From contig JBNZDD010013726.1 in the NCBI GenBank assembly GCA_050575255.1, positions 1,900,409 through 1,964,408 of the forward strand: DNA of 64,000 nucleotides. Direction: 5' to 3'. The translations under genes were made by a program, and so were the position numbers. Source of the DNA: Harriotta raleighana (Eukaryota). Positions 1 to 64,000 of the stretch are shown here, one piece after another; position 1 is the first letter of the stretch; every line of letters starts with the position of its first letter. The notes below the pieces were generated by a model. It saw nothing but the letters and a program-made list of their open reading frames with translations, searched no databases and had not been told where the DNA came from.

Positions 1-284
1 CCTTCTGATGTGAAAGGAGCTATACTTATTTCAGCAGTGTGATGCTGCCATCCCTCAGGACAATTACGTTTCTACTTGCAAGTGAAAAATCTGCACCAGT
101 GGCAAAAAAGAAATGTTAAAAATATCCATTGATAGTAACTCTTCATTGTACCCCCAAACACACCATTATTTCATGCTGTACTTGCCTAGCAATGACTTTG
201 AAGGCCTGACCATGGAGGGCTTTAAAAATGACCCAAGGAAACTTGCTGTCTCTGGAAGCAGCACTAATTTCTGTTGCTCTATCT

Positions 285-425
285 AAGGTGACACTCCAAT
301 GCAGTGCTGGGTGTGCTGTAATCGTGGAGGTCGCACCTTTAGGATGAACTGTTAAACCAAGGCCCAACTTACCTATTCAGGGGATGTTAAAGATCTATGT
401 CACAACCTGGAAAGAGTAGGGACAC
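285..425 (+). mobile_element. Old Deu-domain SINE fragment (AmnSINE1/SacSINE1-like)
   Basis: GACACTCCAATGCAGTGCTG..GGATGAACTGTTAAACCAAGGCCC..GATGTTAAAGATC resembles the Deu domain; other degraded pieces at ~7100-7290 (-) and ~9560-9850 (-). Confidence 0.55.
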
Positions 426-3142
426 AGATACTCAATCCAGCTGATACTGAAAACATTGAAACCTGATGTCATTCAGACAGAGAATGCAACTCAGAGATCA
501 ACTGTGCTGCTGAGATCAACCTGTTTCAGGGTCATTTGGCAAATGCATTGTAATGTTCAGTTGAATAACATGGTAGTTTCGATAAATTAGTGAAACCTTA
601 GCCCTTCAATGTGTTGACAGTGGAAATGTATACACTAGTCATACAAATTCCTGAACTGATTTTATTATGGTTCTAGTAAATTAAGATAGTGTTGGATTAT
701 ATTAAATAGTGAGAGCATTGAAGATGGCTGATTTCTCATTTATTTTACTACAGGAAGCAGAAATCAATTTAGCTATATGTGTCATGTATTTAAAGAGCTC
801 TGTTTTTTAAAAAACAACCTTAGACTTAATTGGTGGTCGAATTTCTCACCTCTAGGGTAAACCTATTACTGTATGTATATAAAAGACTCAATTTGTAAGA
901 AATCATTCATTTCACACCTCATTTGGCTAATCAGTTTATTTTTAATAGTTCAGAAAGATTCACAATTTCCATCAGGTGAATTAATATTAAAGTTATCAGA
1001 ATTCTATTTGGGCGATTCAGATTCCATTGACTGTATCCAGAATTAGACCATCATTCACTACTCTAATCAACTTTGCTGAACATTGGTCCAGACATTCATG
1101 GTAGGATTTTCCAATAAACATAGCACATGCACTTATTACTCATAAGAAATGATGGGATCACTATATCATTCATATTACAGCATCACTGCATAAATAGCAG
1201 TTTGGTATTTACATTTCATATCCTGTTGAGGTACACACATCAAGGCTTTCTTTCCCCTAAAGCCATGAGTCTTAGACTAACTGGCATCTCATTCAGTGTT
1301 TTAATTTATTTTTAAAAGCCTTCCATCCAGGTCTTTCTACAGAGAACAACTGTAAAAGGTACCATAGCATTTCATAGACTGCATTTTATACCTACATCTT
1401 ATCCACAGGATTGTGCGGACTAGAATGGGTTTACCAGAGGTAAATTTTGTGTGAATTACTTTTCCTGGAATCCAATCCTTCCTTTGTGCGATTGGGTTGC
1501 ACATTAGAGGAATAGTCCATTTAACTAGTTACACCTGTTCTATCACTGTACAAGAATATGGAACAATCATACCAGTTAGTGACTATAAATCTCTGGTTCT
1601 CAGGATTCTTATGGTGTAATTAAGAGATCTGTCAACTACAAAGAATAGGACAATATGTAAGATAGTAGACACTCTCTGAATTGGAGCATCTCAAAAGAAT
1701 TAGTTATGAAAGGAAGATTTTTTTAAAAAAGTCAGAAATACAAAATAATTCTGGACAGCTGCATAGAGAAGCTTCAGGGACAGAAGAGGGTTGGGGAAAT
1801 TAAAAAGTTCAATGAGAAGCAGCTGCTGCTTGAATCATGAGTAAACAACTTTGCCATAAGTTAACTCAATGCTGTAATTTATTGAAATGGAAAATATTGC
1901 ACATCCTGTTTCCAAGCCTCTGCCTAACATAGAAACTAATTGAATAAAATTTGATTTCCATATGCTTATGTGACTGAACAAAATATGGCAATACAGAAAA
2001 TTATATAGAATTGCCCTTTTACTGATGTTTGCAGCCACAGAAGTTTTGGTGGAATAAAAAGAATAGAACATTATACTGTACTCCGTCCAGTCGCATTGCT
2101 CTGACCAAGTCACTGATGAAAGTTCTAAATGCCAAGTCATGTCTTCAGATTTTGGCTGTTGGTGTTTTGCATCATACATGAAAGTTCATGTGGCTTTTAC
2201 GACAAGATAAAACATGTAGTTCTTTCAAGCAACCAGAAGATGTTAATTTCTAGTGAAAAGTTAACATACTTTCAGCAGTTTCTTTCACATCAGTTAAAAT
2301 GTCAATTCCAATTCAATTCACCAATCTATGTCAAAGAAACCTAAATTGAACGTAAATTAAAATAACTGATTTAAGCACATTATCTCGGAAGCGAAAAATT
2401 GCCTGAAGCAAATTAGTTTGGGAAATGGTTTTGTTTATCATTGAAAGGTTTGTCTTTGAAGCCAATTTCAGAACGTGCATAACTGTAAATAGTTATTTTG
2501 CGGGGAGGGGTAACAAACTATTTGCTGTATTCAGTGGGCAGCATCAAAAAAGAAAAGCATCCAACTGAACAGTGCATTTTGAAACATTTTGTTGATTCCA
2601 GTATGCAGAACTCAAGAAAGATATTGAACACTAAACAGTAAATTATTCTCATCTTTGAAGTACACTTGTTTCTTGTATTAAAATGAGTCACTACTGCCTA
2701 CATTAGTATTGTATTCTGAGTCATAAATTTCTTCCAAACACCACATAAATTTGTGAAATGCTTCTGTACATGTCCAAGCTAGGTATAGAGTACAGCATAA
2801 ATTACAGTTCCTGCAATTGATTTATATTTTCTGATTCAAGGACTTGTGCACATTATTTTGCTCACTGAATAATGGTGTTTATCTCCAACTCAAGCAACAA
2901 CTGCACATACCTCTTGCCTATTTTGTCCAGCAAATACAGCACTGATAAATGCATTAAATCAGCCTCAGTTTAGCAGTTCATAAAATTAGAAATTGCTCCT
3001 TCTGACATGCTCTCAGTGACATTTCGAACAGCCCTCTCAAGCCTGCCACTGTTTGGAACTACAGTTGTGCTTTCAATCACAAGCTTCAATGTAAACTTTG
3101 AAATGATTGTACATCATTTTATTATTCCAGCAACAATCTTAC

Positions 3143-3218
3143 CTTTTGTAACAGTGTTTAAAAGCAGAATGGCATTCCAGACTAGGAGCTGGAGTTTTAT
3201 CTTGTTTTGAATATCCAT
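3143..3218 (-). CDS. VSIR: Probable first coding (signal-peptide) exon of nested VSIR/VISTA, MDIQNKIKLQLLVWNAILLLNTVTK(G)
   Basis: ATG at 3218, 25 codons +1 nt, strong AAG|GTAAGA donor; basic then hydrophobic, like a signal peptide; lies antisense about 4.5 kb upstream of the CDH23 exon-39 equivalent, where mammalian VSIR exon 1 sits. Identity rests on synteny, not protein similarity. Confidence 0.62.
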
Positions 3219-3284
3219 TTGGTTTTCTTATCTGAATTATCCTTTCTTCATCTGCTAACTTTTTGTGCAAGAAGTCGAATAAAC

Positions 3285-3362
3285 CGATATTTCCTGTGTG
3301 GAGCCTTGACTCTGCAAATGTTATTTGTCAGAAAGAGGCTTGAAACTGAAGGAGGCGGGCCA
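3285..3362 (-). promoter_or_regulatory. Candidate promoter elements upstream of the putative VSIR exon 1
   Basis: ETS-type ACAGGAAAT (minus strand, ~3289-3297) and GC box GGAGGCGGGC (3351-3360) in otherwise AT-rich DNA. Confidence 0.3.
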
Positions 3363-4515
3363 GTATTTACTTACTTTAATTGGTCTCAGTGACTGCCATG
3401 AGCTATTCCAGCAAATAGTAATGGATTTGCAGGAGATAGAAGACTTAAGTTGATTTCTCCTCCCTTCCCAATCACTGTGGACAGATGTTCTGCTCCCGGC
3501 TTTTCCTCCAGTGCAAAAATCTGCAATTGTTCTAACCGCTGTACAGTGTATAAAGAATCACAAAATGTGTTGTGGAGAAGAAAGCTTTAATACTATGCAT
3601 TATGTTATAATACTTCATGAATACAGTAAAACAGATACAAGTCTGATCTATATTAGTCGTCAATCTGCTCAAATAATGTTCAAGAGTTTATACTTTATGT
3701 GAGTTTGACATAAGTCACATTAAATGTATGATACCAACTGACAAAAATGTGAGGTTTCTTGTACACATTTTGCCCCTTTGTATTTTTCTGTATTGTATAC
3801 ACCCAGGACTGTTGTTTTGTATCACTGCAGTACTGTATTATGCAATATATATGAGACTGTAATCTCATTGAATCCTTTAGAAAATAATCAGCAGACACGT
3901 TTGGTAGTATTCTCACCTCTGAGTCAGAAGGTTATGGGTTCAAGGCCCACGTTGATACTTTGAACTCCTGTTGACCTTGAATACCAAAGATGCAGTATTT
4001 GGAAGTTAAAATACAAACATCAACTTCCACAAAGCGACAGCTCAATGATTACATTGAAGTTTGCTTTCCATATTAATGGAACCGTTGAGACAAACAACAA
4101 AATTACATTTATATTGTGGAACAAAAAAGCAGCTTCTGTGACAATTCCCACTGGAGTTAGCAGCATTTACATGAGTGTCGCCAACTTCAGCAGCATGTGG
4201 CGTTTTACTCCCCATCTACAACTGCTTCCCTGACTCCTGCAAAATGTGGGATTTTATGGATATTACATTGCAGAGGCTTTAATTAATTAAGGTGAATATT
4301 GCTCCAAAGATCCCTCTTGATCATCTGTCAATACAAGCTTTCCATTCTTTATCAGCCTGAATGTTGATGCCTGGGATTGGATTCTAAATCCGCTGCCATG
4401 GTTCAGACTTTAGCGAGATGCACACAATTATCGAGCAGCTACTTTTCTTAACAGCTCTTCGTTCCTTTCTGTTCTCAACAATGGACTAGCAATTTACTGA
4501 CTGTATCGAGCCATT

Positions 4516-4845
4516 GTGGAGCTCCTGTGGCTCAGTGGTTAGAGCACTCGCCTTACATGCCTTACAAGCATGAGGCCTGTGTTCGAATCCAAGCAGATCA
4601 GGGCGAAACCTTGGGCAAGTTTCCTTACTCCACATGATAATAATCCCTCCAAAAAAACTACAATAATAAAATTGGTCATTTTCAATCCACGACTGTTTGT
4701 GGGACACTGTTGTGCGCAATTGGCTGCCGCGTTTCGCCCACAAATATACAGTCAATTCACTTTACAGTATATTCTGTGAAGCGCTTTGGGACGTTGATAA
4801 GATGTGAAAAGCGCTATATCAAAATGCAAGGATTATTATTATTAT
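4516..4845 (+). mobile_element. Full-length tRNA-derived SINE with L2-type 3' tail and (ATT)n end
   Basis: Head GTGGCTCAGTGGTTAGAGCACTCGCC...GTTCGAATCC (Pol III A/B boxes); body CTGTTTGTGGGACACTG..GCGCAATTGGCTGCC; tail GAAGCGCTTTGGGACG..GCGCTATATCAAAATGCAAGGATTATTATT; many copies in the window. Confidence 0.88.
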
Positions 4846-5164
4846 AAGAAATCTACTTCTTTGTGGAGATGCTTTTATTCTTGATGCTGATATTAAAAAA
4901 GCAATACACTGTACATATCCATAAACAACTGTACTATGTATACAGGAGTGATACGTTCTGAAAACTAGATTTCTTGCTTTAGTGGTCTGGAGGAATGGGT
5001 TACTTGTTTCTGATGGCAAAGAACTTTCAAAGTCAAATTTGTTGACAGTGATGTCAAACTTCCTAGGCTGAAACTTCAGAATAAGACAAATGACTGTGCA
5101 CAGTAGGGAATCCATTTGGGAATCCAGTACTTTTCTGAGTCTTGTAATTATAATACAGGAATAG

Positions 5165-5370
5165 CAATCCTTGCATTTGATATCGTGCTTTTCACATCTT
5201 CTAGATGTCTAAAAGTGCTTCACAGAATATACTGTAAAATGAATTGGCAGTATATTTGTGGGTGAAAAGCGGCAGCCAATTGCACCCAGCAGTGTCCCAC
5301 AAACAATTGTGGATTGAAACGACCAATTTGTTATTGTTTTTTCTCTTTTGAGGGATTATTATCAGGCATG
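5165..5370 (-). mobile_element. Same SINE family, 5'-truncated copy
   Basis: Reverse complement of the body and tail of 4516-4845. Confidence 0.8.
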
Positions 5371-6099
5371 TGTATAAATGTATTTGTAGGGTTCCATTCC
5401 ACTACCACCAGCCGCAAGGTGTTAATACTTCACTGATCCTAGTCTTCTATACTACAAATTTTTTTGTAGAGTTTGGCTCATCAATGCATAGTCACAAAAC
5501 TCTAGACATTTTGGAGAAACAAAGAAAGTAAATTATCTATGCATTGGAGTTTTTTTTAATCAAACTTAGAGAAGGGTTCGAACAAAGGCAGATTTGAGAA
5601 AAATATAATTGCTGCCATGAAATCTGACCTCATAATGTTTACTTTATACTTGTGAAGATGCCACTGACTATTTTGCTGTGCACTGGATTCCAATAAATAT
5701 TCAATCTGTTTTGTGCCACCATTTCAAGAAGCATGGGGACCCCATTGTAACAAAGATACAGCAGCTGGTATTACAGTACCACAATGATTTGAATTGCTAA
5801 TTTATACGGTGCTTGATTTAATTAAGTGCTGAACATTTTTTAAAGGAGAATGTACCATAGAATACTGTCAATGTAAAACACACTCAGACAAACTTTGCTT
5901 TTGATGATAAAAAGATATAGTCTAGATTAACTCAATTTTTTTCCTACCTGCTTTCAAATCCCATTTGATTTCCTAACTCCTGTAACAATACCTCTGGTCA
6001 GCACACTTAAATTCTCCTTCCTAATCTCTTATGCGCTTCAAGACATTCATCCTATGTAAACTGTTTTAGTTTAGACTGACTCAGTTCTGATTACAACAA

Positions 6100-6435
6100 C
6101 AGCAACAACAAAATTACATTTATAGAACACTTTTCATGTCGGGAAGATGTCCCAAGCAGAGGGGGAGGGTCAGGGTAGGGGTAATTGGATGGAGAGTAGG
6201 AAAGGGGGGAGAGATAGGAGGGTAGCACAAGGCGCGGTCAAAGAGGAAGGTCTTGAGACCAGCTATGAAGGAGGAAATGGAGGAAGCGAGGCAAAGCGAT
6301 TGTGGGATGTTCCAGAGTGTCGGGGCAGAGAGGCTGAAAGCCTGGCCACCGATAATAGGGGGGTTCGGGCAGGGGACATGAAGCAGGCAAGAGCCCATTG
6401 AATGGAGGGGACGGACAGGCTGATAGGGAGACAGC
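6100..6435 (-). mobile_element. L2 LINE 3' end
   Basis: IGGQAFSLSAPTLWN..LKTFLF ORF2 C-terminus plus a (GTT)n-type tail. Confidence 0.8.
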
Positions 6436-7703
6436 ACAAATATGCTTACTGTATGTTCTGAGACATAGTGTTTATTTTCAAAAGTGTCTGGTTTTACACT
6501 ATTGCGTACACGGCAATATCCAAACAGTCAGTGATGCCTCAAGATTTGCTTTATTTTTTCCTAGTGCACCAGTTTTTTTAATATATATCTATATACATAT
6601 AATTTGTTACCACTTTAGACATTTGCAGACTTTATATATTTCCTTAGATCTGTACGTCAACAGCGCCTCTTAAACTCAGTTGATTGTGTAGCAATAATTT
6701 CCGAGCGAAATCCTGCGCTGCCTTATCCGCTAAGCAAAGGCAGTCCTTTACTGCATCCTCCGCAATGTGAAGAATTATGATTTTTATCTTGTGGGCAATT
6801 TAAGATTGTTGAATGCACACAAATAAATCCTTCACGTAGTCAAAAAGCTAGACATCAGTTCTCATGCTCCTAGAATTGACATTTTGTAACTTTGTCCAGT
6901 GTACTTCAGAGACTACAATTGAATTTCAGCCACAGAAGTAAAATGAAAGATATAATGTTTATTATACCTTACTGTAGCATGAATCAGCTGAAGCATGTGA
7001 TCTTTTATAAATTCGGCTTTAATCAATATAAAGTTGAGGTCCTTCAATGCTGAGCTAGTTAAAGGAGGAATAATAATCCTTGTATTTTAAAATACATTAA
7101 CATTGTAGGCGAATTCAGCAGCTAATTTAACACAGCAATATCCCACAAATAACCATGAAGTGAATTAAATTTAACTGGGGGAATGTTGTCCAGGGCATCT
7201 ATCTGAACAGCATTTTGGTTAATGTCTCATCTAAAGAATAGCATCTCCTATAATGCAGCATTCCTCCAACCTAGACCGAGTTCAAAGTCCCAACATAATA
7301 ATAAATAATAATACTTGCATTTGAAATAGTGCTTTTCACGTCTTCTAGATGTCTCGAAATGCTTCACAGATTATACAGTAACGTGAGTTAACTGTACATT
7401 TGTGGGCTAGCTGCATGGTGTAGAATGGAGTAAATCACTTTCTCAAAGTTGGTTCAAATCATGAAACTTCCAACATATCCATCTGCAACCTGGACATTTA
7501 AAGATTTAGAGCCAATGTTAAACAATGCAGGTATTCATAAACCTATGCACAAACTGTACTTTATACCTACAAACTACTATTACATTGATAAGTAAAATGG
7601 ATGATCCTTCCCCTCTTCCCCCTCCCCCCATGCACACACACGCACAGCAAAAGTGTTAATGTACTTCTGAAGATTAACCTGTAATATTTTACGCTTATTC
7701 CAG

Positions 7704-7925
7704 ACAATGACCATGGTTTTTATAACCATTTTGGATGAGAATGACAACTATCCTGTATTTCGGCAGCAGCTATATGAAATCACTTTGGATGAAGGTCCAC
7801 GTACCTTATATTCGTTCAATATAACGGTGAATGCAACAGATCAAGATGAAGGCCTAAATGGGACTATTAGCTACAGCATATTGGAAGGGAATATTGGTAA
7901 CACATTTGTTATTCACAACACCACA
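7704..7925 (+). CDS. CDH23: CDH23 exon (~39), [19 protein letters not shown]...IHNTT
   Basis: ttccag|ACA...ACA|gtgagt; 222 nt. Confidence 0.95.
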
Positions 7926-43900: not shown

Positions 43901-46900
43901 AAACTCTAAAAATGCAGTCATATTCAGTGGTTGCCTTGTCTGGGGGTCGACCAGGATCTGAAAGCAAACCTTCTTAGCAAATTTTATGTGGTACCAGTTA
44001 TGAAGGGGACCAGTTCACTTTACACAGTAATCCAGTGGAGCTAGATAGGACCAGAGTCAACGTACAAGTATGTTACTAAGCTAAGAAGTGTTGATTAGGA
44101 GCTGTCTGCATTACCTCAGGGTTCACTGTTGAAGGTGGTTCTGGATGATTACCTGAGGTTGAAGAAGCTCTTTGCAGCCCGACTGGCACATAAATCTACT
44201 GGCAGTGGTGATCAGTCGTCCCTTACAGAGGTATATGTGGTGTGAAAACAGCCAGTTTGCAGTGTGATGTGTGGGCTTGCTGTGTTTTAAATATTTGGAG
44301 TAGAAAAGATGAAGAATTTCAAGAAATCCTGGTAACATATCTTGAAGCATTATGAATCCTTGAGTTTTACAGCATCAGCAAAGGATTGCTGGGAGAGCGT
44401 AATGAGCAGTAACTGAATCAAAGGGTTCATAAATCTATATATAAATAATAAATAATAAGTGTTGTCATAAATCCTTCTAGACGTTTACGGCCTTCTTCTG
44501 AGCCTCTGAAATTATAATTGCGGTGTTGAACCTCAAACTGAGATACTCACCACAATTGCATGGCAGCATTCAATCACACTAGCAATTCTTTCCATTATTC
44601 ACAAGGACAAACTTAAGGATTCATTTTGCCTGACAGATGACGGTTTTACTTGTATATGTATTTTTTTTCCACTATGAACTTCACATTAGGGTTTAATTCA
44701 ATTTGATCTTAGAAAAAATGTCTACCCTGATCACTTATAATAATAAATAATAACAATTGTGTCATTTGATATAGCTCTTTTCACGTCTTCTAAACATCTG
44801 AAAGCACTTCACAGAATAAACTGCAAAGTGAATTGACTGCATATGTTGCGGACAAAATGTGGCAGACAATTGCGCACAGCAGTGTCCTAAAAATAGTCGT
44901 GGATTGAAATGATCCTGTTATTATTTTTTTTCTCTTGAGGGATTATTATCAGGAATGTGGAGTAAGGAAATTTGGTCAAGGTTTCACCCTGCCCTTGAAT
45001 CGAACCCAGTATACTTGCTTGCAAGGCGAGTGCTCTAACCACTGAGCTACAGGGCTTCATAAGTACAGTAAAATCTTAGTTATCCGGCACCCTCAGGACC
45101 TGACCGATGCCGGTTAATTAAATATGCCGGATATTCGAGTGGCAAATTGCCGAACATCCTATACAAAAAATTAACTTATTTTTAAACATACCATATTAAT
45201 AATAGACTAAATAATAACAGAATATTGTATGGATACTTACCGATAAAGCATTCCAACACACTCGGTAAAATGATTGGCAAAAAAGCATTTCAGCGTTCGG
45301 TAAGTTTAATAAATGCTCATGCGCCACGAGCATACCGGATACCGGTTGGTTGGGTACTGGATAAACAAGATTTTCCTGTATTACTAAGCTTGCTATTTAT
45401 AAGCTTATTTTTCTAACTGGGAACCTCCCAAGAAAATTCTTTGTTAATCACTAGGTAATATGAGACATAGCACTGTTTTCTTCACAGATACGTTAATACA
45501 ATGTTAATTTTTATGATTAGCAAATGATATTTTCAAAATTGATCCTTTTTAAACAAGACAAGTCTTTTAGCACTAAAGACTGAAATGCCACTAGAGTTCT
45601 TGCATTGATTGCAAGGTTTTCCCCTTGTTGATATTGATTTAATGTATTATCTTCTCTCAAGAGGGTGGCCAGGTGCAACTTACTCTCTACAAAAGCACTT
45701 AATGTTCCATCAACTAATTCTTAAAAATAATTGTGTAATCACCTCAAGACAGCATTTCAACTTGTATGGAATGGGTGCCTAGTCAAATACCATATTTTAT
45801 AAGTGATTCTGTGCTGCTGCTTGAGATTGTCTGCAACAGAGATTAGGTCATGTACTACTTAAATAGTTCAGATATGGTGATTAATTTTTATAGAGTTTTT
45901 ACTTGATTGCCTTTGGGATTGAGGGAATATCCATGCCGCCATTTCCCCTAAATGCAGGCTGTGCATAGATGGGAGTCAGGATAAAGTAGGATTTGAGTAG
46001 TCTGGAAAGTTTGGACTTGATACCCTGATTCCTTGCCCTCCATCCCTCTCTGATCCCAATAAGGAGCTTGAGTGCAAACCCCTTATTATCAAGGGAAAGT
46101 CCTCCTTTTGTGAAAGACAATAGGGTGATCAAAAAGTCATACCATTACAATGAGGTCCAGTCATTTCCAAATAATTTGTTTAAAACATATAGCATAGCTG
46201 AAAAATAAAGACTTCTTGATCACCCTGTAAACACAATTTGTTGTTTGTGTTGTTGTTGATGCACTGGAACATTATTTCATATTACGTATTTGGCAAATTT
46301 TCATTTAGCTGCCTAAACCATCGTATTGCATCCTTCTCACACATCACAACAGTCTGCATAATCTAAATTTGTTTAATGCAAATATTTATGTAGAGGTAAT
46401 AATTAGAGAATAATTATCATTTAGTAAGTTTGTTTTAGAAACTATTAGTGTAAAATCAATCGAATTTGAGATGCGTTTCTATTCAATGTAAAATAACCCA
46501 AATTAGTTTAAATAGAGGTTTGGTTAGATAAGTGTGATGGGCATGTTTTGTGTTCTTGAGATTGCAGATGTTGCACACAAGCAGATCCACATTATTTTGC
46601 ATGTAATACTTGGAACTTAAATGTGATTTCTTCCATTACAGTTGATTCCCAGCGATATGGACGAAGATGATGAGAAACCTATGAGTCGAGGTACACTGCG
46701 ACTCAAGCACAGACACCCAGTAGAGTTCAAAGGCCCCGATGGCATCCATGTGGTACATGGAAGCACAGGTACTCTCCTAGCCTCAGACCTCAACAGTTTA
46801 CCAGAGGATGACCAAAAAGTACTGGTAAGATCTTTAGAGACTCTGAACACCGACAATGGGAGCTACAATGATAGGAATGCCAGGACTGAGTCTGCAAAAT

Positions 46901-49779: not shown

Positions 49780-52700
49780 TCATCTCTTTTCTAGTTTCTT
49801 AAATTTGGCTTCTGTGAAAAAACAAAGCACAGCAATATGTAATTTAAACAGGAATTCAACAGGCTCGTAAGAATAAGCATTTGCATTTCTACTTCAGAAG
49901 TATTGTACACCTACAGAGTCGTTACACTTTGAAAGTTTAGGCACAAAATAAATCCCCCAAGTTACTTGGAAATTATCTCACTGGTCAATTAGTTAGGAAC
50001 CCCTTAAAGAAAGGAAACAACTTCCTGTTTAATAACACAGTCCTGGGATGAATTTCAAGTTCCTGTTCAAACCCTCTCTGTATGTTCAATTTTCCTCATT
50101 TTTATGCATCACTGAGATTCCTTATCAATTATTAAATTAATCTGGACCAACACAACACCAAAATTACACTTGATTAGCACCTTTCACATCAGGAGGACAT
50201 CTCTTGAGAAAAAGCAACATGTCTTGATGTTCTCGAGGTAAAGTCCAATGCCATGCACCAGGTGGACTCACAAGCAAATGCTTAATCCAAGTATTCATGA
50301 GAGGGGTTTTAACAATCGTGTGCCCACCAGACTGAAGGGTATTCACTGAGCAATCAGTGTAGGCCAGAGCCTTTCCTCCCTGCAGCATTTCCCTTAACCA
50401 AAAATTTACCTCACAGGTTTGCCCTGACTTTGCAAGTGGGCCAAATGAAATCCTTTTGGTTTAATGCCCAGGAGCTCTGAACACCACAAATTTATTGGGG
50501 CAACAATATCATTAAAGAGAATAAACAAAATAAAGTGCCTGTATACATGTACTGCAATTCTGAAGTATAAAATCCTATTTGTATTCGATTACATGCCATT
50601 ACTCATATATAACATTCACATGAAATTAAGTGATAAAATTACTAGTCCTACCCAGCCTTTTGGAGTATGCGTCCAGTCTGTAAGCTGCTTGTTCCAGAGC
50701 TGCTACTCGTTCCTCAATCTGATTAATCTGATCAAGGTACGGCTGCAAACTGGCATCTAGGAAACACATCATAGAGGTTTCAATTAACTGCAAGGTCGCA
50801 CAAGAAAATGGAAACAATAGATCATTAGACATGATCTGAAGAAAATATTCATTTAGTGGTAGAGTGGAATTAAAAGTTTAATAGGACAACTGATAATTTT
50901 TTATAATACTTAAAAAAGTTATCCAAAGTTTAAAAATTGCTTCCATCTTAATATAATTGGTAGCTTTACTTTTCTATACCCTACTAAACTCTGCTAATTT
51001 AACTGATGACCTAAAGCCTATCTGGGACGGACTCAATATTATCCTGGAGGAAAGTCTTTGGGTGATAATCAAGTGAAAACTGAATATAGACAGTTTTTCC
51101 TTTCCTAAGTGTCCCAAGCCAGTAGCAAGGGAGCATTGTGTGTGGCAAATGCAAGGATTATTATTATCATGCTTTAACTGCACTTTAAAAAATTAACTAC
51201 CCTACACAGCATCTAGAAAATATAGTAACAGCTTATCTTGCTCTTTTATTGACACCTTCATCATTGTTGAGAGGAGCACAGAGGAGAAAAGATCAGGAAC
51301 AAATTATTCTCTTACCCCTACCCAACACCTCTCTCCAAAAATCTTGTTGAACCAGCATTCTACCATTTTGAAACTTCAACTGTACAACTAGCAAGCTTCT
51401 TTATATCCAACGCCTGTTGATAACCAACCAGATTTCACACATTGCCTCTCACAGCCTATCCACAAGCCCACCCAACAGGCCTTCAAATATTTCAGCATTG
51501 GGTTTCAATAAAACATTTAATAATGGTTAAAATAAGTGGTAATAAAGCAAAAATCACCCCCATCACAAACTGTTGCTAAAAGTAATCCACAAACCTCATC
51601 ACTCCAAACATTAAAGTTACACAACCGTACTCTACAAAATTGCATTTCAAGGAGATAATATGCAACTATTTCCAGTAAGATTCCTTCATAAGGAACCCAG
51701 AAGTACTTAAGTAAAAAGGAGGATCCCCACTCCTAAGTGGTCTAATTTCAGAGCTGAGTTCTCATAGGCCAACATGATGTATTTTGAAACTTCATTTGGT
51801 TTCTTTGAAAGTCAAAAATGGGAACGTTATATATTAGTGTCAAATAAAAAGGCATGGGTGGGTGATTGTAAAACAAGCATCCTCATCAGCTGCATCAAAG
51901 GCATTATTAAAAACGAGCATTAGTAATCTGTTCAGTGCTGTTTTGTACAACCAACAAAACTGATTTAACTGATGACCTAAAGCCTATCTGGGACGGACTC
52001 AATATTATCCTGGAGGATAATCAATCATCACTGGCAAAAAAAACAACTTACATTCATTATTGAGGTCCTTGAGGTTACGACTAATATTTACAGCAATATC
52101 CTTCATCTCTAGGTATTTAAGACTGGTCAATTTATTCATGTTCTCCAATAGTTTATAATCTTCACAGGTAGCTGAAATACAACAAGTTCGACGTATCATT
52201 GAGTAAACATATTTCCTTGTTACTCGCAGTTTAGAAGGTTTTGCATTTAGCAGTGAAAACAGAAACAAATGAAGGCTCATTAGTTATAACCATAAGCATT
52301 TATTAAATTTGTAAAGAACTATAACCACCTAGTGGCTGATGTTTCAATGACGGATTACAGTATGAAACTGGCGCAGTGTTATTTTACCAACAACATTTTG
52401 CATTTATATAGCGCCCTTCACACCAGATGGCATCTTCTATAGAGCGCTATCAACCCAAAAGACTGGAAAAATTTACAATAACTTGCATTCTTTCACACAG
52501 AATCAATATCTCAAAGCATTACCAAACCGGAAGAAAGTGTTTAACTTTAACATAGTAACTTTGTGAGAAGATCAGACTGATCACAGGGCTACTATGATTG
52601 TACCAAAATGATAAATATTCCAATCTCACAATGATGAAAGATTGATAGGATTCCTAATTTTTTCCTGTACACCACAGCAGTTAACATCAACCAACCTGTG

Positions 52701-54081
52701 AGTTCTCCTTGCAGGTAAACAGCCATTTTGGTGAACATGTCCTTACAGAGTTCATTAACGTCTGGTTCAGATGGCTCTGTGGCTTCTTCTGCTGTTTCCA
52801 CGCCGGCATCATCTAACATGAGAGGAGAATATTTTTTAAATTTAGTGCTAAACGTTATCCAATCTCAGCTCCTGATACTTTAGTGAGTCATTTTTTCTTG
52901 GTCAGCCAACACATGCGAAAACATATCACTATGCTTAAAGGGTATCCAAAACAAACTGAAAAATCCATGCATCCCACCTATACATGGAAATTCCAGAGAT
53001 AAGATTGTTTGAAATGGAATACACACTCTCTCCCTGATTATCTAATTCCAGAAAGTATTAGATAGCGGTTGGCATAAGGCAATGCAGTGTCGGGGTACCT
53101 GCTGGAGTCTGACCAGCTAAAGTTGTATCTTACAATAAAGAAAACTGCACTGGGGACAACTGGATTCCCTCCCAGTGACTGACTGGTCTGTGCAGTTAAC
53201 AGATATCACCTGGACCAATAACTCTTGAGTGGCAAATGAAGGGGAGAGGTTGTTAAAATCAGACGAGATTACCACTCGTCATTTCTACCCAGAAGTTTGA
53301 AGGCACACGTCAATGTGGATAAGAATCGCCTGTGATTCTTCCCTTCCCCCAAAATACAGACTCCAACGAATATACGCGCACACATATTATATTATTTATT
53401 ATATTACTAATACATGTATATACATACACACGTACATATTCCCAAAGTCGTGATATCTTTACAATGTCGAATCAGTCTTAAATAAATAATATATTTGAGG
53501 AGTTATTTTTTTTAAAAAAGGGTGGATATCCCGACTNNNNNNNNNNNNNNNNNNNNNNNNNNNNNNNNNNNNNNNNNNNNNNNNNNNNNNNNNNNNNNNN
53601 NNNNNNNNNNNNNNNNNNNNNNNNNNNNNNNNNNNNNNNNNNNNNNNNNNNNNNNNNNNNNNNNNNNNNNNNNNNNNNNNNNNTTTGGATGCTCCCATTA
53701 AACACGAGGCTGCGCTGACCCGTGACCAAGACAATACCACGACGAAGGAAATTACAACGGTCAAAAGACAACTTAAACCTTGAAAAGTGACAAGGGGGGC
53801 GGCTCAGACAGCACAGCACGGGGTCTGGCCGCGGTGAGGCCTTCAATAAAGAGTGGAACTGAACAACCTCCCCCGACCCCCAACCGCGGGTCAGCCCCCC
53901 CAATCGCCCCCCAGCCTCCTGCACCTGTCTTTTTAGTCGTTCCCCCCGGAGCCTGGTAGCTTTCTCCCGAGGCCGAGTCTATAGTTTCCTGCGGTGACGG
54001 AGCACTAGCTGCGGTGGAGCTGCCGGGCCCAGGCGGCCCGGGTTCGCCCGTTATCCGCTCGCACTCGGTGCTCTCCGCCAT
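49780..54081 (-). CDS. BLOC1S2: BLOC-1 subunit 2 (BLOS2), complete; coding exons 53925-54081, 52696-52812, 52052-52171, 50652-50756, 49780-49811 (176 aa)
   Basis: Spliced protein ...[124 protein letters not shown] matches BLOC1S2; GT-AG junctions, all phase 1. Confidence 0.97.
50997..52017 (+). repeat. Identical 55-bp direct repeat (50997-51051 and 51963-52017)
   Basis: ATTTAACTGATGACCTAAAGCCTATCTGGGACGGACTCAATATTATCCTGGAGGA occurs twice. Confidence 0.9.
53537..53683. other. Assembly gap (N run) in BLOC1S2 intron 1
   Basis: Run of Ns. Confidence 0.99.
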
Positions 54082-54290
54082 TTTGCCCCGGCGCCGCTGA
54101 CAGCCTGACGGTCACATGACACAGTCGCTAGAGCCGACCTATCAGAGCCCAGGCATTTGGGGGATCACGTGGCGAGCAACCTGCTGCGGTTTTTCTCTCG
54201 TCGCCCGTCAATCAACCGCTCCAGGTTCCAATCACACACACACATCTGTACCACATCTGTCTATAGCAAACACGGCGAGGTGGGGGGCGA
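53700..54290 (-). promoter_or_regulatory. CpG-island promoter of BLOC1S2 with YY1, E-box/CLEAR and CCAAT motifs
   Basis: Clear GC/CpG enrichment; AAAATGGCGG (YY1) over the start codon; GTCACATGAC at 54111-54120; TCACGTG at 54165-54171; CCAAT at 54228-54232. Confidence 0.8.
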
Positions 54291-57700: not shown

Positions 57701-60700
57701 TTAATAAGGCCTATACTGAGTTTGTGTACCACCTCCCCTTCTTGGAGCTTTACCATAACTGCCTGGTTGATCTGAAAGTAAAATTTGTCAGCATAAAATA
57801 CATTTTCGATTCTCAGTCGTAAATCACCATATGAAAATATGGCTTTGAATGCTCTTCTGGCATACAAGTGCATTTGTACCTACACGGTAACAGATAATAC
57901 ACAAAAAAACTTTGCCAGTCCAGGCTAATTAGTTCCTGAAACTTATGCATGTAAATGTACATTTCTGACACAGTGGTACTTTTCAAGTGATAGATCACAG
58001 TATTTTGAACTCTCTCTCTCTCTCATCACAAGGTATGGGATAATTAAAGTATCCCTAATTTTGAATACAGGTCATTCAAGAAAGCAACTAATGTTAGATT
58101 AGTTACCCAAGGATAATTTGCTCTTTGAAACTGCCCTACACTGTACCAGGGTTTGAATGGCTTATTGTTTGCAGATAATGCCAAACTGCTCTTTCAAATA
58201 TAAAGGTAAATGACAAATGCAGGAAATGGGAAATAAATTTTTGGAAATCCAAACACTTGCATATTCGTCCAAAAAATTAAGAATTTTAAAATAATTGAAA
58301 GCAAGCTAATGATGCTCCAATAGTAAAATGGTGTGAAGAAGAACTGTTCAGGTATATTAAATTTGTAAATAAATCTGTCAGGTCACTTGTTCCTGGAATT
58401 TCTTCAATTTACAAATGAGAAAAGGGTTTTGGCATATAAAACTTACTGTTATAATCACCATATCCTTGTCCATACCCATAATAGCCATAGTTGTATGCTG
58501 GGTAGTCATAGCCGCTATACCCACCATAACCCTGGCCATAGCCATAGCTATAGTTTCCATAACTTGGGTTCCAATAGTTACTGTTGTAGCTTTGGTTCCA
58601 GTTTTGGCTTTGTCCTAGTCAGGAGAGCAAAGAAAACAAATGTATTTAAAAATTTGGATTAAAAAATGATTTATAGCTAGTTTGTAAAGGAGGAGACAAA
58701 GTTGTCTTTAATATGTAAAAGAAAATGGAGCAGTCAAGTCAAAATACAAGTCCCTTGTGGTAATGATTAAAATAAATGTTCATGGATATTTTCAGACCTA
58801 GATGCAATTTACAGAACAACGCAAAAGAAGGCAAAATATGCAGCAACACTGGTGCATGGGAGTATTCTTGCCACTGCTGCAGCTGGTAAGGGATACCATC
58901 AAGGGAAAAAAAAAACCAGAAAGGAAAAAGAAAAATGCTAAGTTTCCTATCAGAGAGTCAACCAAGAAAAGTACCTTATCAAGTGGCTGTTCTGCACGTA
59001 CACTCCAAGCAAACAACTGTGGACAAGTTAACCAACCTTGTGGGTATCGCTGTGAATCAATCCAAAGCCCACTTTCCACACAAAAAACACTGGATAGCAA
59101 ACAGGAACAAGGAAGGAATTCCCCGCTTCCCAGCAAGGAGGAACTGAAGCCAACTACAATGTCCCCATAAACTTTATTTGCCCAATTTGAACAAAAACCA
59201 TTACTATTGCTTCCTACCTTTTGATCCATCATATCCCTTGCTGCTTAATATGTTTGAAAAATAAAAGTTCTTTGCAGAATTGAATCATTTAACTATGGTT
59301 TCCAATTCCAGGAATTTGTCCAAATATACGTTTAAGTTGGTAGTTTCTTAAATATGCAAGTAGCATTTTCAGCATTAGGGTTCCTCACCTTGAGCAATGA
59401 TTCTTCCCCCGGCCCCCCACCCCCCAAAATACCCACCAAAAAGTGCTCTATAAACATAACTATAAAATGATTTGATATTTTAAATGTACTGAGACTGTTT
59501 AAAGGTTTCAATCATTTATAGCAATTTCAATACTGAATAAATTCAGTCAAATTAATCATTCAAATATCCCTTCTTTAAATACAACTTAGTAGTAGTTGCT
59601 CAATAGATACTGACATGGGTGAAAATGTACATGTGGATACTGGCGAGATGACTTCTACAAAGCTCACCAATTACCATTACAACAAAGAATTGTATCCCAA
59701 AATAAGCAGCCCTGGATAATTTACTTTATTACATTGTTACATTAAATAATGTCTGAACATTTGGTTAGAATATCCCAAACACAGTACCTCCTCTACCTCT
59801 TCCTCTACCAGAGAATCCACCTCGGCCTCCCCATTGCTGTTGCTGGTATACCTCCTTGGGCTGGGCCAGTTTGATTTCAACCTTTGGGGAAAATGTATCG
59901 AAATACAAGCTTTACTTATGTGGCAAATCAAATTAAATGAAAATACAAATCGTTAATATTCTAAAAGATTTGAATAGCTAAACTAGAAATATTTCTAATT
60001 TTTTTAGGAGGACCCCCAAAAAGTTTGGGATAAATGCCATACACCTCGAAGCTTTCCACAACCACATTTGTACCTTGCTTGTACCAACATCATGGAACTT
60101 CTTTTCCATAATCGCCTTCACTGGATTCTCATCTTTAAATGTTATGAAACAGAAACCTCTTCTCTTGTTGGTCTTCGTGTCCATTGGAAGCTCAATAGAT
60201 TCAATCTATTAAATCAAACAAAACCACTGTTAAGTAATTTTTTTCAAATTCCCTGGAAAGACGTGTGTAGCTTCACAATAACTTCATTTTGAAGCTACAT
60301 ACATACCCTCAAGGTTTAAATAACTGCAAAGGGTTTTTTAAAAATTCAATTAACTATATACAGTAAAAGCCCATTTATCCATGACTCGATGAACTGGAAA
60401 ACCAGTTGAACCGGCACCTCAAAAAAAATCCCAATTTGATAAACCGAATGTTATCCGGCAGAATAGTGCTGATGCATTTAATGAATCGATTGTCACACAC
60501 AAGTACTGGGCAGGTATATCGGCTGGCCGCTAGTGGAGCCTAAAGTCACACTACTGCCATTTTTTAAAAGTTGCGCTACTGCCATTTTTTTCCCTCCGTG
60601 GGGGCCATCATTGCAGAAGTTAAGTAGAAATAATAAAGTACTAATACAATATTCTGTTATTATAGTATCTGTTATTACTGTATTTAGTCTATTATTTAGA

Positions 60701-62362
60701 TAGTAGTGTACAACATTTACACGTAACCATACAATATTCTGTTATTATCTGTTATTATTTAGTCTATTATTAATATGGTATGTGTTAAAATAATTTTCAA
60801 TTAAAAACAATTCTTTAAAAAACCGTTCAACCGGAAAGCCGTTTAACCGGGACTGGCCGGTCCCATGGGTGCAGGATAAACAAGCTTTGACTGTAGTGTG
60901 AATTTGTTATTCCAGCTCAGGTTCTGGAACATTCCATTATTCAGCAAGGTGTTCAGAAACACTTAAATACAAGGGAAAAAATAAGGGGAAAAAATTAATG
61001 TATTGATGTCTTCAACACAAGAGATGATCCAAGGTCTGGGACTTTCAAGGAACTTAAAGGTTAGCTGTTGTTTATATGTTTCTAAGAAAAATAATGAGTA
61101 TCCTAATACAGTAAAACCTTGTTTATCCAGCACCCAAGGGACCTGGCCAGTGGAGGTTAAACAGTTTTTCCAGTTGAATGGATTTTTTAAAAACATTTTT
61201 TTTTTAAAAATTAACATTTTAAATTATTTTAACATTATTAATAATAGACTAAATAACAGAATATTGCATTACTACTTTATTTATACTTAATTTTGTAATC
61301 ACAGCCCTCACCCAACCTATTTTAGGTCAAATGGACCAAAGTAGCAACTTCTGTGTTGTAAGTTGTAATGCTTTATAGGTTAGACAAGCATCACTATGCG
61401 TGAGATTCCATTAACAGATAATAACGACCGAGGTAAAAAAAAAAGCGACTTTTAAAGGAAGCAGGAGCGATCTCTCTCTCCCTCTCTGTGTATGTGTCTC
61501 TNNNNNNNNNNNNNNNNNNNNNNNNNNNNNNNNNNNNNNNNNNNNNNNNNNNNNNNNNNNNNNNNNNNNNNNNNNNNNNNNNNNNNNNNNNNNNNNNNNN
61601 NNNNNNNNNNNNNNNNNNNNNNNNNNNNNNNNNTCTCTCTGTCCCTTTGGGTGTATATATGTGTGTGTTTCTCTCTCTTTCACTCTCTCTGTCTGTGTAT
61701 CTCTGTCTCTGTGTGTCTGTATGTGTCTCCCTCCCTCTGTATCTGAGTGTGACTCTCTCTCTCTGTGTATCTGAGTGTGTGTCTCTCTCTGTGTATCCGA
61801 GTGTGTGTCTCTCTCTCTGTATGTGTATCTCTCTGTGTCTGTGTGTCTCTCTATCCGTTTCTGTGTGTCTCTCTCCATCTGTGTGTTTGTGTGTTCCACT
61901 CTTTCACCTGTAATTGGCTGCTGCCCAAGGCTCTGAGGATCTCACCAGTTTATACCTGCCTAGTGGCCAGCCGCAAGTACTGCACTCGCGAATACTGCAC
62001 TCGCTTGCGACCGTCCATTCATTAAACGCATCATCGTTATTTGCTGGACAACTTCCGGTTAATTGAATCGGGACTTTTTTTTTTGAGGTGGCGGTTGAAT
62101 GAGTTTTCCAGTTCATTGAGTCATGGATAAACAAGATTTTACTGTAAATTGAAATATATATATATATGTATAGATTGACAAAATCATTGCAACAATTTAC
62201 CTCTCCAAACGTCCCAAAATAGTTCCTCACTTTTTCCTCTGGACAGTCGGGGTCCAAACCACCAACAAAGATCTTTTTGATTGGTTCCTTTCCTTTCATA
62301 GCTTGAGCTCTCTTCGGATCAATAACTCTCCCATCAAGTTTGTGCTCTTTATATTTCAATAC
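57701..62362 (-). CDS. hnRNP D (AUF1)/DL/AB-family RNA-binding protein, 3' part; coding exons 62201-62362, 60074-60205, 59788-59881, 58447-58614, 57701-57771 (5' exons beyond the window)
   Basis: [27 protein letters not shown] (RNP2)..RRGFCFITF (RNP1)..[19 protein letters not shown] (RGG)..Y/G-rich region..[18 protein letters not shown] (PY-NLS); exon structure typical of HNRNPD/DL/AB; exact orthology unresolved. Confidence 0.95.
60361..60893. mobile_element. MITE copy in an hnRNP intron
   Basis: TA|CAGTAAAAGCCCATTTATCC...GGATAAACAAGCTTTGACTG|TA. Confidence 0.85.
61109..62144. mobile_element. MITE copy, inverted relative to 60361-60893, expanded by a CT/GT microsatellite and an assembly gap
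   Basis: TA|CAGTAAAACCTTGTTTATCC...GGATAAACAAGATTTTACTG|TA. Confidence 0.82.
61470..61905. repeat. (CT)n/(GT)n compound microsatellite with an N gap at 61502-61633
   Basis: Direct observation. Confidence 0.9.
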
Positions 62363-64000
62363 CTGGACGTTTAGGAAGAAAATCATGATCATTCATTGCT
62401 TAAATTGCAAAATGAATTGCAATAAAATCAATTTGAAATGATAGAATATAGATGAGGAAAGCCAAAGATTAAGATACACAGAAGTATAACGATTTGCTTT
62501 GGGGGGGAAAAAAAACTTAAGACCTCATGCACAAGCACTTAATTATTTTGAGAATAGACCCATTAGATATTTGACGTCTACTTTACCCAACTTTGGTCTA
62601 TGTGCACAGTAAAATGCATTAACTCTGTAGATAACCTGTATACTTGCTTTCATTGGAGCGAGGTAGATTAAATACATATTACATTATCTATGTATATATG
62701 CATTATTACAATAGTAACAGTAGCAATAAACTACAAATAATATTGAAACATAGGTAATGATTTCAAACTAAAATTAAATGTGCTTTCAACCACTTTCTAG
62801 AGATTATTCTAACAATAAAGACAAACAATTTAAAGTTACAATTAGAGCGGTTATTAGATTTAAACATACTTAAAATTCCAGCCCAAATTAAAGTGTCCCC
62901 ATGCTCCCATTAACACTAATTATTTCCTCTAAACAAGAAACCATGGAACATCCCTCTGCAGAGCAAGTTGAATAAAGCTGTTCATTTAATCTTGGAAATA
63001 TTCCAAAATCCAATATAGCCTACAGAGTGCCAACAGAAGCATGGTTCACAATAGAACTTCTGGCCAGAGCGCCACTGACAGTTTAGTGAGCAAATGCATC
63101 ACCCAGCGTGATAGAGCCATACAAATTAGAATGGTTCCACAATCCATTCCAGTTTGTCTTAGCTAATTTCAGCTAGGCTGAAGGTTAGTAGAGGGCTGCT
63201 TAAATTTGCCTCAACATCCTGGGTTCAAAGAAAAGAGGGGAAATGAACCAGGGTCTCCTGCTTGCTATCTAATCATTCCTCCCCTTCAAAAGCAGCAGCC
63301 TCTCCCATGGTTGAATAGCCTGCCGACACTCACTGCTGCTGCCCTTGGAACCCACCATGAGTCAGCACCTTCAGGAAAGGAGAGAAGAAAATTAGTAACC
63401 GATGCCAAACTATTTTCTCCTCCCGATCACAAATTTAATAAATCCACAAAATACAAAAATATATTTTAAAATGGTATCAATACTTATGGTACCATCTCTA
63501 GATTATACTGCCAATTACAGTGGATGTACTCGGTTTACTATTGTGAAGCATGTTCCTGACTGAATTTAACAGTTCCAAATATAACTAGATTGAACCTACT
63601 ATTGAAATGTGAATGCTTTATTTTACAAGTTTCACAAGTGAGTCCTCTCATCTCACTAAGTAGACTAATTCACTGCAAAACTTAATCTTAATCCTACAAT
63701 AGCACCTGAAGCATTTATATACAGTTATAAAGTTTATACGTTAATAAGAATTCACAATTTAACAACACTCATTGAATGAAGTTGCACAGTTTATTGGTAT
63801 GGATATTACTGTAGACGTTTTAGAATCAAAACATGGACTAGAACTGGTACACATTCCAGCAAGAGCCAATATAATAGATTATACAGCAGGTGTTCCTATA
63901 TACTGTCCGGGCAATTCCCACAGTTGGACATAAAACAAATGCAGCACAGAGATTAACATGAACATTCATCTTTAGGAAGCAGATGCTTAGCAATAAAACT

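Follow-up and report, generated by a model that had tools for sequence, protein, structure and literature searches.

Introduction

Cadherin-23 (CDH23) is a deafness gene, and VISTA/VSIR is an immune checkpoint gene whose inhibitory role is established for human and mouse only. Human VISTA (also PD-1H, B7-H5 and C10orf54) combines a single IgV domain, no IgC domain, six cysteines and a histidine-rich ectodomain with a short stalk, one transmembrane helix and a tail without an ITIM. In the portions available to us, three reviews place human VSIR inside a CDH23 intron (PMC7525281, PMC9986543, PMC10631023), as the first-pass annotation of this DNA had stated, and two of the three describe its expression as independent of CDH23; no intron number for human VSIR was found in the available parts of main texts. 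Likewise in their available parts, one paper reports VSIR in all gnathostomes (PMC13262535), another treats the mouse VSIR/CDH23 locus (PMC12341078), and a study of CD28-family evolution names VISTA only as a ligand partner (PMC11599192). We found no paper on VSIR nesting in cartilaginous fish among titles and abstract openings, with most subscription journals outside the coverage; genome browsers probably display it.

The window analyzed here is a 64,000-nt stretch of DNA from the chimaera Harriotta raleighana (G000:C13726:1900409-1964408). Together with adjacent sequence, it very probably holds a complete seven-exon VSIR, antisense between the orthologues of CDH23 exons 38 and 39, with a predicted promoter of its own just above position 3218 and likely nested in this way since the jawed-vertebrate ancestor. 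The chimaera gene shares with human VISTA all of the protein traits listed above and the position within a CDH23 intron, with about 30% identity in the IgV domain. VSIR of Callorhinchus milii (XP_007895961.1, UniRef V9KSJ2), an orthologue from a different species that we compared as protein, has 295 residues against 296 in our chimaera and is colinear with it end to end (leader, 16/25 identical; IgV, 78%; transmembrane and tail exons, 94-95%; exons 4-6 as a set, 94-100%).

A complete VSIR gene on the minus strand

The gene was read from the DNA and its model checked by script. Its features are given below in window coordinates unless marked; L002 is G000:C13726:1890409-1900408 and L003 is G000:C13726:1880409-1890408.

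3143-3218, minus: VSIR coding exon 1, ATG to phase-1 donor, 76 nt, signal-peptide N- and hydrophobic regions
1-3142, minus: in-window part of VSIR intron 1, full length 10,756 nt
L002 2386-1979, minus: VSIR exon 2, IgV, 408 nt
L002 860-798, minus: VSIR exon 3, stalk with sixth cysteine, 63 nt
L002 465-355, minus: VSIR exon 4, transmembrane, 111 nt
L003 9210-9183, minus: VSIR exon 5, 28 nt
L003 7780-7602, minus: VSIR exon 6, tail, 179 nt
L003 5310-5285, minus: VSIR exon 7, to TGA, 26 nt

All seven coding exons have AG/GT borders and compatible phases (0-1, 1-1, 1-1, 1-1, 1-2, 2-1, 1-stop), and they join into an open frame of 891 nt encoding 296 amino acids, with the first AATAAA 1392 nt past the stop. 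All of them lie within one 32.7-kb CDH23 intron, on the opposite strand. The IgV and later exons had been predicted upstream of window position 1, and six exons are indeed found there, antisense to CDH23 and still inside its one host intron; the IgV exon appears as a 143-codon minus-strand frame in L002. VSIR is single-copy in this genome, with one locus (3 matches among 15 candidates). A genome-wide V-set search in which 150 of 928 candidates were scored did not list the VSIR locus, which was found by direct reading of open reading frames. The resulting gene model is complete, and is one that annotation of short exons could overlook.

The host intron is the orthologue of human CDH23 intron 38

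The host gene contributes the following features.

1-7703, plus: in-window part of the CDH23 host intron, full length 32,722 nt, orthologue of human intron 38
L004 4754-4981, plus: CDH23 exon before the host intron, 228 nt, orthologue of human exon 38, 25 kb before the window
7704-7925, plus: CDH23 exon orthologous to human exon 39, 222 nt, 3' border of the host intron
7704-46965, plus: 3' part of CDH23, 32 exon matches corresponding to human exons 39-70, stop near 46965

We take the human gene to have 70 exons in total. Four of four named CDH23 proteins map to the plus strand exon by exon and in order, through EC repeats, transmembrane helix and tail. The 228-nt and 222-nt exons that flank the host intron are joined in the CDH23 proteins of sawshark, turtle, bird, macaque and teleost, and the 222-nt exon, expected from the first reading to lie a few kilobases from the leader exon, is 4.5 kb from the VSIR ATG. 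For human CDH23, the available part of PMC13510221 places exon 35 at c.4210 and c.4825 in exon 38, and has exon 38 opening with AAC and exon 39 with GCC. In the chimaera, the four exons that precede the host intron total 636 nt, which leads from human c.4210 to c.4845, and the last of them opens with AAC; this sum and this start identify the host intron as the orthologue of human intron 38.

A 33rd CDH23 exon match, of 33 nt, was dropped as spurious. A 111-nt tail exon at window 44120-44230 (plus) is matched by the sawshark and Betta proteins and missing in the turtle and pigeon isoforms that were compared; presumably it is the penultimate exon whose alternative splicing is known from hair cells. 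L006 contains a 2.1-kb direct duplication (93-2178 and 2699-4783, 99.4% identity) that includes a CDH23 exon and has single Ns at its joints; it is likely an assembly artefact, and otherwise an exon duplication.

A candidate promoter above the VSIR start codon

Two features lie directly above the ATG.

3289-3362, minus: candidate TATA-less proximal promoter (putative function), with ETS-type, IRF-like and GC/KLF sites
3237-3251, minus: 4-codon upstream ORF, in frame with the main ATG, stopping 18 nt before it, weak start context

ETS and GC-box motifs had been noted directly upstream of exon 1, and both are present. The ETS-type octamer CAGGAAAT lies at 3296-3289 (minus; 3 copies in the window) and the GC/KLF box GGAGGCGGG at 3351-3359 (plus; GGAGGCGG occurs twice in the window), with an IRF-like GAAA..GAA near 3342 (26 copies in the window), all three kinds of motif having been chosen post hoc. 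No CpG island accompanies exon 1 (0-2 CpG per 100 nt), a difference between the candidate promoter and human VSIR. No acceptor scoring above 3.8 was found within 300 nt above the ATG (3219-3520), whereas the six acceptors of the VSIR gene score 4.5-11.6 under the same scoring, and from this we infer that the gene has its own minus-strand promoter near 3250-3400.

In this scheme, minus-strand transcription would start independently of CDH23 from a TATA-less promoter with ETS and GC-box sites, no more than about 150 nt from the ATG, and exon 1 would be spliced over 10.8 kb to the IgV exon. The 4-codon upstream ORF would belong to the 5' UTR only if transcription begins above 3251, in which case leaky scanning past its weak start could deliver ribosomes to the main ATG. 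The VSIR start site and the status of exon 1 as the first exon are both predictions from DNA alone.

Exon 1 could instead be coding but internal, with the promoter at a non-coding exon further upstream and the ETS and GC motifs incidental. Minus-strand donor-like sites at 3375, 3917, 4557, 5629 and 5948 would suit such an arrangement, as would the lack of a CpG island and the ATG at 3251, which would fall in a long 5' UTR. It requires, however, an acceptor where 3219-3520 offers none comparable to those of the gene, and the first good one (3538) would leave two upstream ATGs in the UTR; we therefore regard an internal position as unlikely and favor exon 1 as the first exon.

In five shark VSIR models, another ATG precedes the start codon in frame, by 8-17 codons. 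Two minus-strand sites of the window, a strong donor-like one at 3375 close above the GC box and an acceptor-like one at 3538, show no coding potential.

Age of the nesting

At least 14 cartilaginous fish have an annotated VSIR. Among the 20 named of 164 profile matches, 17 are VSIR or VSIR-like and 3 are VSTM4, and none of the 20 shows a jawless or invertebrate source, to the extent that the printed names reveal it. VSTM4 is the nearest full-length non-VSIR relative among these 20 named representatives (E 9e-8 to 2e-4), but its matches are far weaker than those of VSIR and it is not this gene. In a horned lizard, locus tags and accessions are consecutive between a VSIR model and a CDH23 fragment that starts with the exon-39 orthologue.

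Since human VISTA also lies within a CDH23 intron, the nesting probably goes back to the origin of jawed vertebrates. By parsimony, and with one cartilaginous-fish genome read as DNA, the nesting likely predates the split between cartilaginous and bony fish. An origin in early jawed vertebrates, as the first-pass annotation proposed, is therefore the likely one, its basis being this genome, the published human nesting and, indirectly, the lizard tags. We assume that human VSIR lies specifically in intron 38, antisense, with seven exons of the same phases; if the human intron is indeed intron 38, VSIR-in-CDH23 is dated to the cartilaginous/bony fish split. The surprise in this is small, because it is already published that all jawed vertebrates have VSIR, and the gene is annotated in sharks.

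A second gene is nested in CDH23 as well. An intact, single-exon DUF5527 ORF of about 135 amino acids (L008 5895-6302, minus; G000:C13726:1836303-1836710; E 4e-48, 163 bits) lies antisense between CDH23 exons, about 64 kb before the window and in an earlier intron than VSIR. We take it to be C10orf105, which is presumably also nested in human CDH23. If VSIR had entered CDH23 separately in chimaeras and in amniotes, the nesting would not be ancestral, and such a history would fit with DNA having been read from this genome only and the human intron being assumed. It is nevertheless very improbable: the host gene is the same, the lizard tags point to what is likely the same junction, another antisense gene (DUF5527) occupies an earlier CDH23 intron, and it is improbable that one intron received two insertions independently. 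A single ancestral nesting remains our preferred reading.

Homology identifies the leader exon

A 76-nt minus-strand exon with a phase-1 donor had been picked out from the sequence, and the same exon, peptide and donor are seen here. It begins with the start codon at 3218-3216 (minus strand), runs for 25 codons plus one base, and is followed directly after 3143 by its donor (AAG/GTAAGA), which is among the best 6 of 3472 minus-strand GT sites by a crude, local matrix built from 31 automatically picked CDH23 donors. Among the 28 stretches of 15-35 codons that run from an ATG to a phase-1 GTRAG on either strand of the window, exon 1 alone combines strong hydrophobicity with a basic N-region; the hydrophobicity threshold was set on the exon-1 candidate itself, so this comparison is weak by itself.

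The decisive evidence that exon 1 is real comes from homology. In a 184-kb search region that includes 120 kb upstream of the window, the N-termini of five of five shark, ray and chimaera VSIR queries map to window 3218 alone (E 4e-5 to 3e-3). Of the 25 residues encoded by exon 1, 13-17 are identical in 12 of 14 cartilaginous-fish (shark, ray and chimaera) VSIR N-termini, with similarity ending at the donor, and the remaining two align with a one-residue gap. The phase-1 donor is in frame with the IgV exon, as the first reading implied, and the codon created at the junction encodes Asp, as in 8 of the 14 relatives. The N runs of the window are distant from exon 1. That the 76-nt stretch is a chance intronic ORF, with VSIR using another leader, is scarcely credible: short hydrophobic ORFs are common, and two database models of relatives (P0419, P0125) have other N-termini joined at the same IgV acceptor, but the identities with orthologue N-termini stop at the donor, the minus strand of L002 2387-10000 offers no other leader candidate, and window 1-7703 contains only two others, both hydrophilic, at 4635.

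The predicted protein is VISTA with a shorter C-C' loop

Exon 1 encodes a basic N-region and a hydrophobic core (11-residue mean 1.96), and an A-T-A in exon 2 aligns directly before the mammalian mature start. Cleavage is accordingly predicted after Ala30, in exon 2, by alignment to the human mature start, so the signal peptide is not confined to exon 1. The earlier description of a signal-peptide exon thus holds for the N- and hydrophobic regions and not for the predicted cleavage site.

Against the PDB, the IgV domain matches VISTA (E 1e-16 to 9e-16), with the next best protein at 4e-4. Against longer proteins, all 11 matches are chondrichthyan, nine named VSIR and two hypothetical, the best being that of Callorhinchus milii. 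Pfam V-set scores 35.6 bits in the IgV exon (cut-off 26). Exons 3-7 encode only stalk, transmembrane helix and tail, giving a single V-set, no IgC and type I topology; the juxtamembrane and tail motifs typical of VSIR are kept, by inspection the cytoplasmic tail contains no ITIM consensus, and the tail of Callorhinchus VSIR aligns with those of 16 other vertebrate VSIRs. A structure model built from 90 sequences (pLDDT 82.6) agrees with this identity, its best four PDB matches being human VISTA (E 1e-9 to 2e-8), with others from 1.5e-6. A first AlphaFold model (9 sequences, pLDDT 54) was discarded and replaced by this one.

Five IgV cysteines are invariant in all 90 aligned sequences and the sixth ectodomain cysteine is encoded in exon 3. 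The available part of PMC10631023 describes three disulfides and six ectodomain cysteines in human VISTA (mature 12, 22, 51, 113, 114, 146), which the six chimaera cysteines appear to match by alignment. The IgV exon has 17 His in 135 amino acids. Compared with human VISTA, the chimaera C-C' loop is about 12 residues shorter and keeps Arg54 and Arg58, but lacks equivalents of His69/His72 and Phe62/Gln63, whereas its F-G loop is longer and carries five His. HMMER and MAFFT place the His121-123 triad differently; for the VSIR-family trait of His153-155 with a long C-C' loop, the loop is shorter in the chimaera protein and the triad alignment ambiguous. We take human Phe62 and Gln63 to be ligand-epitope residues. 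With the C-C' loop shortened, ligand sites may differ from those of mammals. Because the extra cysteines and histidine richness are kept with this shorter loop, chimaera VISTA offers a natural variant with which to ask what came first among the ligands (PSGL-1 or VSIG3) and among the pH switches. Functional hallmarks of the family are expression in leukocytes, binding to PSGL-1 or VSIG3 that depends on pH, and suppression of T cells. The chimaera product would have type I membrane topology, six cysteines and many histidines in and next to its IgV domain, and no ITIM in its tail, and by analogy with mammals it may act as an inhibitory receptor or ligand on the leukocyte surface.

CDH23 exon 39 as a possible internal start

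Two in-frame ATGs stand at the start of the CDH23 exon that follows the host intron (window 7704-7716, plus), the second in strong context, and many short CDH23 models in amniotes start at the exon-38/39 junction. Among database models restricted to proteins below 2000 amino acids, 32 of the 48 with the exon-39 peptide have no exon-38 peptide before it. Moreover, 36 of the 48 begin within 60 amino acids of the exon-39 peptide, against 0-9 of 56-81 at five later exons. The same short leader is found on short models from two turtle genera, and another in four crows.

These patterns could reflect a two-way promoter in the host intron, conserved in jawed vertebrates, that also starts short leukocyte CDH23 transcripts at exon 39 and that, with DUF5527, has locked a checkpoint gene into a hearing gene for more than 400 million years. 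We consider this doubtful: the short models are explained at least as well by prediction breaks at a long intron holding an antisense gene, and products of an exon-39 start would be without a signal peptide.

Other genes near the locus

In the available part of PMC12341078, mouse Psap is in the same domain as Cdh23. In the chimaera, unlike in human, CDH23 is followed by BLOC1S2 and not PSAP: a BLOC1S2-like gene (Pfam BLOC1_2; window 50600-54100, minus) lies tail to tail with CDH23. With this gene adjoining CDH23 and SapA domains found on other contigs in this genome, CDH23-PSAP synteny is broken on this side. Further along, window 58300-62400 (minus) holds an RRM gene with Gly- and Tyr-rich tail exons. 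It presumably resembles the hnRNP A/B-D family and is possibly a paralogue kept in cartilaginous fish.
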